DNA of 64,000 nt, from assembly GCF_045037415.1 (NCBI RefSeq), contig NZ_CP173438.1, one strand, 5' to 3'. Both the position numbers and the translations under genes were made by a program. This document shows, one piece after another, positions 28,027-34,511 of this stretch. The notes beneath the pieces were generated by a model, which saw nothing but the letters and a program-made list of their open reading frames with translations, was not told where the DNA came from and ran no database searches. Position 1 is the first letter of the stretch; every line of letters begins with the position of its first letter. This stretch comes from Escherichia coli. Its GTDB lineage: Bacteria; Pseudomonadota; Gammaproteobacteria; Enterobacterales; Enterobacteriaceae.

Positions 28027-28920
<894 letters not shown>

Positions 28921-28969
28921 TTACCTCATCAATCGCTTATCGTTATATGTTGTGTTGTGCACATCTATC

Positions 28970-28995
28970 CGTTTAGACGTCCAGATGTAAAGATG
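28970..28995. promoter_or_regulatory. MetJ operator (met boxes) of metF promoter
   Basis: tttagacgtccagatgtaaag contains AGACGTC met-box repeats upstream of the metF start. Confidence 0.6.
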
Positions 28996-29216
28996 AAGGA
29001 AAAGCCGAAGGGCGTCAACCGAAAAATAACCAATGATGGTGAGGAAAAATCAGGGAAGATGAAAAAAACTCATCTTAATTAGAGGCGATAAAAGATTTCT
29101 CTATAGCGCAATCCACCTCGCACGTTTTGACTCATATTCTGACAACACAGCGACACCTGGGCTAATTCGAAAAACAACGTCCTGCCACCGGATGGTGATG
29201 TTAAGGCATCTGATTC

Positions 29217-29238
29217 GGCCTGCGCCCTCGCGTAGGCC
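29217..29238 (-). terminator. imperfect hairpin downstream of the nucleotidase-like gene
   Basis: ggcctgcgccctcgcgtaggcc, 8-bp stem with one mismatch, about 60 bp beyond the minus-strand stop at 29299; no clear U-tract. Confidence 0.3.
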
Positions 29239-29298
29239 GAATACAGGATCTGCGCAATCAACGGGTAACAAACAGTTGAGTCAATTCAGTGCGCACTT

Positions 29299-30852
29299 TT
29301 ATTTGATATCCTTCACGCGCATACCGTTGAGCTGTTCATCCGTAATGGTGTTGCCCGCTTTGAAGTAATCAACCACCGCGTGATAAACGTAATAACCGCC
29401 CGTTGTGTTACGCGCTTTCCCTTCGGTAAAGGCGGTAAAACCATCTCCACCATCAGCAAGGAAACTCTGAGTAGCAATGTGATAAACCGTCGCATCTTCA
29501 ATGGGTTTGCCATTCAAAGTCAGTGTGATTACCCGCTGACCAACCGGCCTGTTGCTGTCGTACTTCATTTCCAGGCCTTTCGATACCTGTAAAACGCCAT
29601 TGCTTAAACTTGCGCCGTGTTCCATCAGACTGCGTAATTGTTTACCCATGAGTTCCATCGTCACCAGTTCGTTGGGGAACGGAAACGTACTGATGACGCC
29701 GCCCATCGTGATCGCCCCTGCGGGGATCTCATTGCGGATACCACCAGAGTTTGTTAACGCCAGTTGGGTGTTTTTACCCGCCGCTACCAATAAAGCGTCA
29801 GCCGCCAGGTTCCCGAGGGAAGCCGATTCACCATAGGCACGTTTTAATTCAACCGGCGATTGCGCCACCGTTTGTTGCACCACTTCATCAAGCTTTTTAT
29901 TCCAGCCGTCGATCACCTGTTTCGTTTGCGGATCGGGCTTCCACTCGTCAGCGTAAATGGTTTTAAGCTCGAAGTTTTTCACCGTAAAATTATGCGGCTT
30001 CTCTTTGTAGTCGAGAACCAGTTTGCCCACATCAATCCCGCCGCTGTCAGTGGAGAGGATGAGCGTATTGCCGACTTTAATCGGTTCCGGCGTACCCACA
30101 TGTGCATGTCCGGTGATCAAAATATCCAGCCCTTTCACCTGACTTGCCGTCTGAATATCTTTATCCAACGCGCGACGCACATCTGTGCCTCCCATACTGG
30201 ACTGGCGGGCTGGAACACCTTCGTGGATCAGGGCGACGGTCAAATCAACCTTGCCTTTGAGTTCATCGATATAACGTTGTAGCCATTTAATTTCATCGCG
30301 CGCTTCAATACCCACGCGCGTGGCAGCAGATACCGTATCATTAAAGGCAAATACTCCGTGCAAACCAATAACGCCTATTTTCACACCGTCTTTTTCGATG
30401 ATGGTATAGGGCTTATCCCAGAATGATTTACTGCTGTTCTGATAAAAAATATTGCCCTGCACAATAGGGAATTTTGCCTGGCTCAACTGTAATAATGTGT
30501 TGTCCCAGCCGTGGTCAAATTCATGGTTGCCTATTGTGACGGCATCAAACGGCATAGTATTCATAATATCGATAATAGCCTTACCTTTGGTCAGGCTGCT
30601 GATATATGGCCCGGTAAAATAGTCGCCCGCATCAAAAAACCATGTCGCTTTATTTTTTGCTTTTTCTTGCTTAACCAGCGTAGTGATATTTGCCCAGCCG
30701 CCAATATCCCGTTTACCGTCAGCGATCCACGGCACTTTATAAGGCTCGACATGTGCATGGAGGTCGTTGGTATAAATGATGGTGACATCTTTAGCGCAAG
30801 CCCAGAATGGCAGTGTTAATGCGATACCCGCAGCAAGTATTTTAATTTTCAT
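29299..30852 (-). CDS. secreted bifunctional metallophosphoesterase / 5'-nucleotidase-family protein (UshA/CpdB-like); not in K-12 at this position
   Basis: 517-aa ORF with signal peptide [20 protein letters not shown]; calcineurin-like motifs [38 protein letters not shown]; C-terminal half consistent with 5'-nucleotidase substrate-binding domain. Confidence 0.8.
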
Positions 30853-30984
30853 AAACAGTCCCTTTCAGTGAGATAAAGGATTGCTACATTACGTTCTGAA
30901 AGACTTATTTATGTGAGAGTAATCACATCCGCAGGGGATAGTTGCCGGACAAAATCAACGACCTTGTGAAATCGTTGGTGATAT

Positions 30985-32115
30985 ATGTCGACTCTGTTTA
31001 CGATTAATGCCTGTAAGTCGTTTGGTTGCCGTAATTTAGGGCAGCCAACATCGACAGATTATAGCTGGCCCGACTATCGACTGGGTTATCCGGCACTGCA
31101 CTGTCGGGCATGTGGCAGTTACCCGCCGTTGTTTGACGAGCAACAATTTCGTGACTGGTTGACAGTTCACTTATCTACTTTTGCAACAGAGAAAGGCCAT
31201 TTTTGCCCGGTATGTTATGGCACAGAGACGATTTGTTATGGTCACAATCCACAGGGTTCGCAACGCATTCAATGCCGTAACTGCAAAAAAGTATGGACAC
31301 CCAAACAATATCAGAAAGAAATAACGACTCCCGAAATAATCGAAACGGTTGCTTTGCTCGTGCCATTTCAGGGAGTCAGCAGCGGGCAGAAACTGTATGT
31401 TTTAATCAGTTTTGATGCTCTTCGCGGTAATATTCTTCATCTTTCTACTAATTACACGCAGCATCAGGCTGGAGAAAGTCTGCATTATCGATACAGAGGA
31501 AATGCAGAACCAGAGTTACACGACAATAATATTGTACAACGCGTTGATATGCGCGAAGCACAATTTCTACGCCGCAGTCAGTTTGATGAAATTCAGTATG
31601 GCAGCGCAGCGCTCAAGCGCAATGCCAAAGGCGCTATTCTGCGTCCGGTTATCACTGCACACGGGCATTTCAGAGTACTGAATATTTTATTCCCTACAGT
31701 AAAAACACATGTAATTTCACACGAGTGTTTTTTAAGAGGTGCCATTATTACGGCCTGGGCTGATCTGTTTCGCCAACAGCAAGGTGAAATTTGGTTTATT
31801 GAAGAGGAAATAGCTGACGATACCGATAATATGCCCTGGCGTTTTCAGGGAAAAACTTATCACGGCTGGTGGAAAAATCAGTGGCAACTCTGGGTTCAGG
31901 GAAAAAATCGTAAAATGGTATGTGCATTAACGGGCGGAAAGAGTAGCAAAGCAGAAATGCTCTCTTTAGCAACCAGCAGACATTTTATCGACTGGCTACA
32001 TAAACAAGCAGTATTTACTCACAGCGCCCCGCTTTCCGCAGGGCGCGTTACGCAAATACTGCTTTCTCTGGCTCAGGATTACAACAACTGCGCCAGTCGG
32101 TTAATATCCGACTGA
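30985..32115 (+). CDS. cysteine-rich zinc-ribbon protein, transposase-like N-terminus (IS1 InsA / IS1595-type zinc finger), C-terminal domain of unknown function
   Basis: 376-aa ORF; CxxC pairs at C10/C15, C40/C43, C74/C77, C97/C100; CPVCYGTETICYGHNPQGSQRIQCRNCKKVW parallels the IS1 InsA CPxC...QRYxCxxCxKxW pattern; hand-estimated GC near 42 percent; last 37 nt overlap the antisense metL 3' end. Confidence 0.65.
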   Translation: MSTLFTINACKSFGCRNLGQPTSTDYSWPDYRLGYPALHCRACGSYPPLFDEQQFRDWLTVHLSTFATEKGHFCPVCYGTETICYGHNPQGSQRIQCRNCKKVWTPKQYQKEITTPEIIETVALLVPFQGVSSGQKLYVLISFDALRGNILHLSTNYTQHQAGESLHYRYRGNAEPELHDNNIVQRVDMREAQFLRRSQFDEIQYGSAALKRNAKGAILRPVITAHGHFRVLNILFPTVKTHVISHECFLRGAIITAWADLFRQQQGEIWFIEEEIADDTDNMPWRFQGKTYHGWWKNQWQLWVQGKNRKMVCALTGGKSSKAEMLSLATSRHFIDWLHKQAVFTHSAPLSAGRVTQILLSLAQDYNNCASRLISD

Positions 32116-34511
32116 ATCGCCCCGGCGGTGACGTCGCGCCCTGCACCTGGCCCGCGGATCACCAGCGGGTTGTCGCGATACCAGCGGCTTTCGATGGCAA
32201 AGACGTTATCGCATGGCAGTAGTGATGCCAGCGGATGGTCTTCACGCACCGCTTCCACGCCCACACGCGCTTTGCCATTGGCATCGAAACGCGCCACGTA
32301 GCGCAGCACCAGCCCCATTTCGCGGGCCGCTTCCAGTCGTTGCACCATCTGCTCGTTAAGTTCATCGCCATTTTCAAAGAAATGGTCGATGCTGCCGCCT
32401 TCGCAATGGGCAGGCACCAGTGATTCAACACGTACCTGGTCCGGTTCAATGTTGTAACCCGCTTCACGCGCCAGAATCACCAGCTTGCGCATTACGTCTT
32501 TGCCGGAAAGGTCATCACGCGGGTCAGGTTCGGTTAAGCCTTGCTGCCACGCCTGATCCACCAGTTCGGTAAACGGCACGCTACCGTCGAATTGCAGGAA
32601 CAGCCAGGAGAGCGTGCCGGAGAAGATCCCACTGATCGACAAAATGGTATCGCCGCTGTCGATCAGATCGCGCACGGTATGGTTGATCGGCAAACCCGCA
32701 CCGACGGTGGCGTTGTACAGCCAGTGACGCCCGGTTTTTTCGAAGGCGTCGTGGATCTGGCGATATTTATTGCTGTCGCTTGCTCCTGCCAGTTTGTTGG
32801 CACTGATGACGTGGAAACCGTGGCTGGCGAAATCAAGATACTGGTCAGCGAGCTGCTGGCTGGCGGTAACGTCCAGCACCACTAAATCATCATACGGATG
32901 GGCGCGCATCCACAGGAACAGCGACTCTTCATCCTGCTCGACCGCTTCATCGTTGAAGAAGGCTAACGCGCGGCTGGCGTCCAGACCGTCATAGCTCAAC
33001 AGGCTACGGCGGCTGTCCACCACGCCTGCCAGCACAAATTCAAAGCCGGTACGTGCCGAAAGCGTACTCTGCTCACGGGCGAACAGTTCCAGCCAGCGGG
33101 AACCGATATTGCCCTTGCCGAACAATACCAGGCCGATGCGTTTTTCCGCGCGGAAGACGGACTGATGCAGCCCCTGAATCAGGCTTTCGGTCGGGCCGGT
33201 GCGCAGTACTGCCACCAGGCTGATGCCGTCATCGGACTGCCAGGTAAATTCGACCGGCTGGCCTTTCAGTTGCTGCCAGAAGCGGTGGCAATGCAGCGGG
33301 TTACGGGTGACGCCCGCCCCAACCATCGCCACCAGCGCCAGCCCCTGACGCAGGCGCAGTTCGCCAGGTAATCCCGCTTCGTCGAGGATTTTCAGCGCAC
33401 TGTCGGCCACTTCTGAGGTGTAGCAAAATTGCAGCAACTGGCGATCGTTATGCACGCCAACCGCCAGTGGACGTACCTGAGCACGTTTCAGGATCTGGTC
33501 GATCTCTTTATGCGCCAGTTTGAAATCCTGGCTGGCGGGCACCTGAAACTCAATCAAGCAGACATCATCATGGCTGGTGACAATACGCGCACCAGTACCG
33601 GAGGCCAGCACGCGTTCAATGCGCGTGGAACCTTGATCCGGCGTGTAGCTACAGCGCAGTTGCAGGTCGATTTCGCTGCCAGAAACGGGCTGTAAAGTAC
33701 GGGCATGAAGAACGGGAGCCGCCAGACGCGCCAGTTCGCTGGCTTCATCCAGACGCAGCAACGGCAGCAGGCAGGCATCTTTCACTTTACGCGGGTCGGC
33801 GCTATATACCCCGGCGACGTCGCTCCAGATGGTTACGCGAGAAACACCCGCCAGCGCACCGATTTGTGTCGCGGAATAGTCGGAACCGTTACGCCCCAGC
33901 AGCACCGTTTCACCGGCGTTGTTACGGCTGATAAACCCGGTCACCACCAGACGTTTGCCCGGATGTTGTACCAGTAGCTGTTGCAGCAACGGGTAAGAAA
34001 GCCCTTCATCAACCTGCGGTTGCGCAGCGCGTTCAGCGCGTAAAAACTCGCGGGCATCAAGCCAGGCCGATGGCAGCCCTTGTTGATTAAGCACCGCAGA
34101 CATCAGGCGCGCCGACCACACTTCACCGTGGCCCACCACTTCCGCATACACCGCATCGTTAATACCGCTGTCGAGCAACGCCGCCAGGCGCTCAAGATCG
34201 CTGACAAAAGCGCTAATGAGGTTATCGGCTTCTTCGGCGGGTAGCAGGCCGCTAATCAGATCGCACTGATAACGACGTAATGTTTGTTGAACCTGATGCG
34301 CAGAGAGACGATCGGTCTGGCTTAGTTTCAACCAGTTAATCAACTGGTTAGTGGTGCTACCGGCGGCGGAAACCACCATCATATCGTCAGGCTGAGAGTA
34401 CTCCGCCATAATGCCCGCGACACGCAAATAACACTTCACATCAGCCAGACTACTGCCACCAAATTTATGCAGTTGACGACCTTTCGCCCCTGCCTGCGCA
34501 ATCACACTCAT
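32079..34511 (-). CDS. metL: bifunctional aspartokinase II / homoserine dehydrogenase II
   Basis: 810-aa ORF MSVIAQAGAKGRQLHKFGGSSLADVKCY... ending DINRLAQLL. Confidence 0.97.
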   Translation of the reverse strand: MSVIAQAGAKGRQLHKFGGSSLADVKCYLRVAGIMAEYSQPDDMMVVSAAGSTTNQLINWLKLSQTDRLSAHQVQQTLRRYQCDLISGLLPAEEADNLISAFVSDLERLAALLDSGINDAVYAEVVGHGEVWSARLMSAVLNQQGLPSAWLDAREFLRAERAAQPQVDEGLSYPLLQQLLVQHPGKRLVVTGFISRNNAGETVLLGRNGSDYSATQIGALAGVSRVTIWSDVAGVYSADPRKVKDACLLPLLRLDEASELARLAAPVLHARTLQPVSGSEIDLQLRCSYTPDQGSTRIERVLASGTGARIVTSHDDVCLIEFQVPASQDFKLAHKEIDQILKRAQVRPLAVGVHNDRQLLQFCYTSEVADSALKILDEAGLPGELRLRQGLALVAMVGAGVTRNPLHCHRFWQQLKGQPVEFTWQSDDGISLVAVLRTGPTESLIQGLHQSVFRAEKRIGLVLFGKGNIGSRWLELFAREQSTLSARTGFEFVLAGVVDSRRSLLSYDGLDASRALAFFNDEAVEQDEESLFLWMRAHPYDDLVVLDVTASQQLADQYLDFASHGFHVISANKLAGASDSNKYRQIHDAFEKTGRHWLYNATVGAGLPINHTVRDLIDSGDTILSISGIFSGTLSWLFLQFDGSVPFTELVDQAWQQGLTEPDPRDDLSGKDVMRKLVILAREAGYNIEPDQVRVESLVPAHCEGGSIDHFFENGDELNEQMVQRLEAAREMGLVLRYVARFDANGKARVGVEAVREDHPLASLLPCDNVFAIESRWYRDNPLVIRGPGAGRDVTAGAIQSDINRLAQLL

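Follow-up and report, generated by a model that had tools for sequence, protein, structure and literature searches.

What is the function of the nucleotidase that part of the species Escherichia coli encodes between metF and metL, and with which partner does it work? We address this question in a 64,000-nucleotide stretch of E. coli contig NZ_CP173438.1 (the window), where the gene, which we term Nt1 (29299..30852, minus strand), is transcribed away from a second gene, ORF2 (for open reading frame 2; 30985..32115, plus strand), encoding a 376-residue "cytoplasmic protein". Nt1 is itself an ordinary find, as the gene is annotated, the crystal structure of its product has been solved and the island in which it lies has been described. 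The new element at this locus is the coupling of ORF2 to the nucleotidase. Based on domain, structural, genomic context and promoter comparisons, we propose that Nt1 is probably, though by no means assuredly, a periplasmic 5'-nucleotidase under the control of cyclic AMP and its receptor protein (cAMP-CRP) that makes nucleosides for uptake, that ORF2 is its regulator or partner, and that a longer form of the same locus adds nucleotidase paralogues and a channel. It should be noted that we infer the substrates, the physiological role, the CRP control and the regulatory role of ORF2.

The Nt1 gene is an uninterrupted open reading frame that starts with ATG and specifies 517 residues, as a sequence-only reading of this DNA had stated, and the metallophosphoesterase motifs (DxH, GD, GNHE and GH) and the 5'-nucleotidase-type C-terminal domain that the same reading described are all in place. 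Specifically, both of the Pfam families that would be expected of such a protein are assigned, PF00149 (Metallophos) to residues 24-252 (4.8e-12) and PF02872 (5_nucleotid_C) to residues 334-477 (5.4e-38), and the motifs map to D30-x-H32 (NDLHAH), D77 (DAGD), N109-H110...D113 (GNHEFD), H210 (LIHEG) and H249-x-H251 (GHAH). In full-length HMMER alignments with the 5'-nucleotidases CD73 and Thermus thermophilus 2Z1A, which are gapped and of low identity, the metal ligands D30, H32, D77, N109, H210 and H249 and the His-Asp catalytic pair H110/D113 are conserved. The nucleotide site of the C-terminal domain is likewise represented. In structures of CD73 the Asn and Arg bind phosphate, the Asp binds ribose and two Phe residues stack on the base, and N368, R373, D470, F392 and F464 of Nt1 align with N390, R395, D506, F417 and F500 of CD73; the counterpart of CD73 R354 is ambiguous, being either K337 or R338. 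By its domains, its metal-binding and catalytic motifs and this C-domain site, Nt1 can be considered a bona fide two-domain member of the UshA/CD73 superfamily, and a dN/dS ratio of 0.13 relative to the allele of the long form of the locus indicates purifying selection.

The best reading of the N-terminus is that Nt1 would be a soluble protein of the periplasm. Residues 1-20 (encoded at 30793..30852, minus strand) form a predicted signal peptide whose hydrophobic core lies between a basic n-region and an A-x-A cleavage site followed by KDV, so that cleavage is predicted before K21 (A20/K21). The signal peptide noted previously thus stands, and by inspection we assign it to the cleavable type processed by signal peptidase I. 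This assignment, rather than that of a lipobox, is favored because the signals of Nt1 homologues end in VMA/QD, VFA/QD, ALA/KD or SYA/KD, that is, in A followed by K-D or Q-D, and lack Cys. A lipoprotein anchored through Cys19 was also considered and is ruled out, since W at -2 and P at -4 (FWAC) break the lipobox and Cys19 is not conserved among the homologues.

To which family does Nt1 then belong? It had been proposed to be a third paralogue beside UshA and CpdB, and it is indeed additional to both, but the relationship proves to be distant: using comparison sequences taken from the K-12 record, Nt1 is 24% identical to UshA and 25% identical to CpdB, the latter over the N-domain only (270 residues), and the equivalog cut-offs are failed. 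The score of Nt1 is 151.4 bits against the NCBIfam UshA equivalog NF007109 (cut-off 600), 99.8 and 97.8 bits, over the N-domain only, against the CpdB models NF006938 and TIGR01390 (cut-offs 486 and 883), 132.4 bits against NadN TIGR01530 (cut-off 436) and 152.8 bits against SoxB TIGR04486 (cut-off 550). The YfkN-type models NF006934-7 give 185.7 bits, confined to profile positions 629-1097, which is the 5'-nucleotidase module, and their cut-offs are 1646 or higher. When all chains in the PDB are ranked, 3IVD is followed by the T. thermophilus 5'-nucleotidase 2Z1A (161 bits), and thereafter by venom and CD73 5'-nucleotidases (116-124 bits), NadN (107 bits) and UshA (82 bits), the weakest of the matches listed being the N-domains of YfkN and CpdB (49-61 bits). 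Judged by these comparisons, Nt1 is none of UshA, CpdB, NadN, SoxB and YfkN and is placed as a distant paralogue of UshA and CpdB, and its closest characterised relatives are the YfkN 5'-nucleotidase module, the Thermus 5'-nucleotidase and the CD73/venom 5'-nucleotidases.

The likenesses and differences are consistent with this placement. UshA shares with Nt1 the two-domain architecture, the compartment and the metal-ligand and catalytic motifs, but it is the product of a core gene at another locus. CpdB shares the superfamily and the compartment, but only its N-domain can be aligned, whereas the C-domain of Nt1 bears residues used by 5'-nucleotidases. In 2Z1A, the CD73 and venom enzymes and the YfkN module, the catalytic and nucleotide-binding residues of Nt1 are conserved; however, Nt1 is a single module without a glycosylphosphatidylinositol or LPXTG anchor, YfkN is a fusion, and the relation to all of them is distant. 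Nt1 belongs to a distinct subfamily of the Enterobacterales and Vibrionales, with orthologues of 87-91% identity in Enterobacter, Kluyvera and a 6665-member cluster that is apparently Klebsiella, of approximately 70% in Cronobacter, Atlantibacter and Citrobacter, and of 55-60% in Vibrio and Providencia. As a separate observation on CpdB, K-12 record NZ_CP047127.1 (L008 21418-24107) has cpdB annotated as a pseudogene with an internal stop, immediately followed by an IS1A element.

The protein has been named and crystallized before. RefSeq calls it "bifunctional metallophosphatase/5'-nucleotidase" (WP_000694068-type), and the PDB entries 3IVD and 3IVE ("Nucleotidase"), in which the construct begins at A20, at the mature N-terminus predicted here, are 98.8% identical to Nt1 with six differences over residues 19-517. 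These structures are essentially those of Nt1 itself, but of an allelic variant from another strain. We take them to stem from structural genomics, the protein being the putative 5'-nucleotidase c4898 of strain CFT073 and the ligands uridine and cytidine; the database view gives only the sequence and the molecule name. No paper accompanying the structures came up in the literature searched.

A pointer to what Nt1 may do comes from ORF2 and the genes beside its relatives. The ORF2 family is rare, with only 119 clusters (at 50% identity) among 1.84 billion representatives, is confined to Enterobacterales and Vibrionales, and goes by the name "cytoplasmic protein" or by the automatic names "IS1 family transposase" and "lactate dehydrogenase". 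In all 12 of the contexts sampled, ORF2 relatives adjoin nucleotide or nucleoside genes, and in nine of them the adjacent gene encodes a nucleotidase of 515-521 residues with Metallophos and 5_nucleotid_C domains. The two genes are divergent in the window, in Klebsiella and Enterobacter, and in loci L011, L015, Lelliottia L017 and L018. The remaining contexts contain a NupC-type transporter with a purine nucleoside phosphorylase (PNP)/UDP phosphorylase (L012/L013), DeoB with a phosphorylase and a NupG-like symporter (L014), or a phosphorylase (L016). The chromosomal sites of the pairs vary, metF-metL and the amn and clpA regions being among them, so that ORF2 and the nucleotidase move or persist as a unit. 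Specifically, in the Enterobacter and Klebsiella-labelled loci the Nt1 orthologue lies at another chromosomal site, near amn, again with a divergent ORF2 homologue beside it that is 71-78% identical.

What kind of protein is ORF2? It has two N-terminal Cys4 zinc ribbons, formed by the eight Cys residues conserved in the family, followed by a transposase-like RNase H-fold core in which no Pfam family is recognized. R197 and H228 are invariant in the family and H246, W296 and W300 nearly so. The AlphaFold2 model, built from a 43-sequence alignment, has a pLDDT of 94.3 and a pTM of 0.93. The second zinc ribbon matches the InsA/IS1 models weakly, and the family profile aligns with IS1 InsAB' over the zinc ribbon and helix-turn-helix with a probability of 96.7% (E 4e-10). 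An InsA-type zinc ribbon and an RNase H-fold core, as in the IS1 family, are present. No DDE triad is conserved in ORF2, as far as catalytic positions inferred from the order of secondary structure elements can tell, and the position after strand 4 at which one would expect the second Asp is taken by R220-P221. Compared with InsA and InsAB', ORF2 thus lacks the DDE triad, carries one more zinc ribbon at its N-terminus and, in the E. coli clade, has no helix-turn-helix. Taken together, these features give ORF2 the appearance of an IS1-type transposase that has been domesticated and is catalytically dead.

Two other explanations of the pair were examined and rejected. The island might be a transposon with the nucleotidase as its passenger, but no terminal inverted repeats were found flanking 29068-32077, the locus differs from that of IS1 also in occupying a median of one place per genome among carriers, the DDE triad is missing and ORF2 relatives have several kinds of nucleoside neighbours. 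A defence system is ruled out by PADLOC, which returned no match for either Nt1 or ORF2.

The 132 bp between the two genes (30853..30984) form a divergent control region, blocks of which E. coli shares with Enterobacter and Klebsiella. The region contains a perfect match to the CRP consensus core, TGTGAGAGTAATCACA, at 30912..30927, which is the sole match to this core in the 64-kb window, where 0.07 would be expected by chance. The center of this site would precede plausible transcription starts of both genes by approximately 41-43 bp, the candidate -10 elements being TAATGT for Nt1 and CAAAAT for ORF2. Control by CRP is typical for nucleoside-catabolic genes, and the corresponding spacers of L011, L012, L014 and L017 contain sites resembling TGTGA-N6-TCAC[AG]. 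Two further elements flank the CRP site. The block TTACGTTCTGAAAG (30889..30902) is invariant in a four-way alignment of the two E. coli forms, Enterobacter and Klebsiella and is a candidate promoter or operator upstream of Nt1, and an inverted repeat, CAACGA-N10-TCGTTG (30956..30977), which was detected as a stem-loop just before the start of ORF2 and is conserved across genera, is a candidate operator or hairpin of the 5' untranslated region. When the spacers were viewed by eye for operators of the PurR/CytR type, a good AAACGTTT-type palindrome was seen in L015 only and none that was convincing in E. coli. A permissive Rfam search of 28800-32300 gave no riboswitch or small RNA match, and a scan for sigma-70 promoters and terminators did not rise above shuffled expectation and is not used as evidence.

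The accessory position that had been ascribed to Nt1 is confirmed by comparison of the locus with other strains, which also connects the gene with further nucleotidases. According to blastn against K-12 and long-form loci, the segment 29068..32077 (3.0 kb) takes the place of 197 bases of unrelated sequence that separate metF and metL in K-12, and the metF-metL spacer of E. coli occurs as three alleles. The empty allele (K-12, BL21 and O157) lacks Nt1; the short allele, that of the window, contains Nt1 and the divergent ORF2; and the long allele contains five genes, for Nt1, ORF2, Nt2 (516 residues), Nt3 (539 residues) and a Tsx-like porin, Nt2 and Nt3 being 58% and 65% identical to Nt1. Of the complete genomes of E. 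coli, 5426 in all, 1843 carry Nt1, in one copy each (two copies being plasmid-borne). In 1840 of these the match extends over 80% or more of the gene, and the 4.6 kb specific to the long form are found in approximately 660 of the 5426. The metL..metF region of the extraintestinal pathogenic E. coli (ExPEC) strains BEN2908, UTI89, RS218 and CFT073 has been described as "GR 31" (PMC12928451). It encodes a Tsx-like channel together with three ORFs that have a UshA domain and are each approximately 28% identical to Bacillus subtilis YfkN, and the authors suggest a coordinated system of nucleoside degradation and transport. GR 31 has the chromosomal site and the Nt1 gene in common with the window (ORF 431, 1554 bp, in that work) but is the long form, whereas the window has Nt1 and ORF2 only. 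The passages of PMC12928451 covered here list the Tsx-like and the three UshA-domain ORFs, not ORF2.

The two forms differ in more than gene content. Nt1 is 98.8% identical between the short form and the long form of strain UPEC957C, whereas ORF2 is only approximately 78% identical (window 30985-32072 versus L004 3287-4374), with a dS of 0.94 and a dN/dS of 0.16. Hence, ORF2 falls into two old allele classes, and recombination has made the locus a mosaic. In the window, homology with the long form ends at approximately 32072, and the 4.6 kb with Nt2, Nt3 and the Tsx-like gene are absent. A simple recent deletion from the long form is only partly supported, given the old and distinct ORF2 alleles. 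The 3' ends of ORF2 and metL overlap convergently by 37 nucleotides (32079..32115), so that the final 9-12 codons of ORF2 are the antisense of the 3' end of metL, where the long-form homology stops.

Several side observations concern the same island. The divergence step within it is sharp and implies recombination near the Nt1-ORF2 spacer. In the long form of UPEC957C (L004 4644-8790), Nt2, Nt3 and the 286-residue Tsx-like porin are all co-directional with ORF2, and Nt3 is frameshifted in this strain. The K-12 empty site (L002 1669-1865) is not a clean excision, as its 197 bp are unrelated to both island forms and include a palindrome resembling repetitive extragenic palindromic (REP) elements and an annotated hypothetical ORF of 44 residues. 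Inside the island, downstream of the Nt1 stop, a hairpin with 13-bp arms (ATTCGGCCTGCGC/GCGTAGGCCGAAT; 29213..29242) looks REP-like rather than like an intrinsic terminator, because it has no T-run.

We now put forward a mechanism in which Nt1 would be exported via Sec and act as a soluble dimetal 5'-nucleotidase in the periplasm, where it would strip the 5'-phosphate from extracellular or periplasmic nucleotides to give nucleosides that are taken up and catabolised. Nt1 and ORF2 would probably be transcribed from a common divergent promoter dependent on cAMP-CRP, and ORF2, a dead transposase-like protein derived from IS1, may serve Nt1 as a dedicated regulator or partner. In strains with the long form, Nt1 would be supplemented by its two paralogues and by a Tsx-like outer-membrane nucleoside channel. 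Besides the domains and motifs of Nt1, its solved structure and the purifying selection on it, the following observations support this reading of nucleoside scavenging: the long form links Nt1 to Nt2, Nt3 and the Tsx-like channel, which the GR 31 paper independently interprets alike (PMC12928451); in 12 of 12 contexts ORF2 relatives adjoin genes for a nucleotidase, a NupC/NupG-type transporter, a PNP/UDP phosphorylase or DeoB; and a CRP site sits in the spacer between Nt1 and ORF2 and recurs in distant loci. For the ORF2 family as a whole we tentatively suggest, at somewhat less than even chances, that an IS1-type transposase was domesticated to serve periplasmic 5'-nucleotidases and genes of nucleoside uptake and catabolism as their dedicated regulator or partner, one that probably senses nucleosides and acts together with cAMP-CRP at the candidate sites 30889-30902 and 30956-30977.

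Three other roles for Nt1 were weighed against nucleoside scavenging. Nt1 might be directed at the host as an ecto-nucleotidase that generates immunosuppressive adenosine or degrades cyclic dinucleotides, and so contributes to the evasion of innate immunity by extraintestinal E. coli. Adenosine is formed from AMP or ATP by CD73 and by Staphylococcus aureus AdsA, and cyclic dinucleotides are degraded by CdnP, SntA and CpdB. The sequence of Nt1 is nearer to CD73-type 5'-nucleotidases than to UshA, Gram-positive members of the family have such roles, and the match lists are enriched in human clinical, canine and avian extraintestinal strains. Moreover, the island is described as common to the ExPEC model strains (PMC12928451), and the Tsx-like gene of the long form (c4894) is among the genes induced in CFT073 by overexpression of TosR, a regulator of uropathogenic E. 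coli (PMC5956150). However, Nt1 is predicted to be periplasmic and unanchored, with neither LPXTG nor lipobox, its 87-91% identical orthologues are found in Klebsiella, Enterobacter and Kluyvera of environmental and commensal origin and its relatives in marine Vibrionales, its genetic partners are genes of nucleoside uptake and catabolism and not virulence genes, and virulence data on Nt1 were not found, and we consider a host-directed role quite unlikely. An activity mainly on phosphoanhydrides, as a UDP-sugar, CDP-alcohol or NAD pyrophosphatase comparable to UshA and NadN that duplicates or extends the second activity of UshA, would accord with the sub-threshold matches to the UshA and NadN models, with the annotation of some orthologues as "bifunctional UDP-sugar hydrolase/5'-nucleotidase" and with the usual promiscuity of enzymes of this fold (PMC8071527). 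Nevertheless, the scores are far under the cut-offs (151 of 600 for UshA and 132 of 436 for NadN), the identity to UshA is just 24%, the UDP-sugar names are automatic and the ligands of the deposited structures are taken to be plain nucleosides (uridine and cytidine), which leaves this activity unlikely as the main one.

The Nt1 of the short form could also be a decaying, functionless remnant of a five-gene island from which Nt2, Nt3 and the Tsx-like channel had been lost. The short form does lack the 4.6 kb, the long-form homology ends against the metL stop codon, truncated alleles of Nt1 exist and one strain with the long form has a frameshifted paralogue, but Nt1 is intact in the window and covered to at least 80% in 1840 of the 1843 carrier genomes, and both Nt1 and ORF2 are under purifying selection (dN/dS of 0.13 and 0.16). 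In addition, the two-gene module without Nt2, Nt3 and Tsx is standard in Klebsiella, Enterobacter, Lelliottia and others, from which it follows that Nt1 and ORF2 are a self-sufficient unit. We therefore regard decay as very unlikely.

The proposal that Nt1 and ORF2 form a CRP-controlled nucleoside-scavenging module must also accommodate several observations that weigh against it. Nt1 is below every curated NCBIfam equivalog cut-off, and hence its specificity is not transferable from any family, and neither enzymology nor a mutant phenotype of Nt1 was found in the literature searched. A common truncated E. coli allele (cluster P0082), which starts at residue 158 and is thus without residues 1-157 and the metal ligands, has 442 member sequences compared with 3465 for the full-length protein, so that Nt1 is dispensable in some lineages. 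With respect to control, the CRP site of Enterobacter and Klebsiella retains its TCACA half alone, the TGTGA half being degenerate. As for ORF2, the members of the E. coli clade lack the helix-turn-helix segment that longer members share with InsA, which makes DNA binding less certain, and in L019 and L020 the ORF2 relative is co-directional and directly downstream of the nucleotidase gene, an arrangement that fits a partner as well as a regulator.

The island accounts for a frequent presence/absence polymorphism of the metF-metL spacer, Nt1 being missing from two thirds of E. coli. In ExPEC, Klebsiella and Enterobacter, Nt1 could aid nucleotide scavenging or possibly the signalling by nucleotides. 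Should ORF2 indeed be a regulator, bacteria would offer a clear case of a transposase domesticated into a transcription factor, and ORF2 would add a new player to the picture of nucleoside catabolism governed by CytR, DeoR and CRP.

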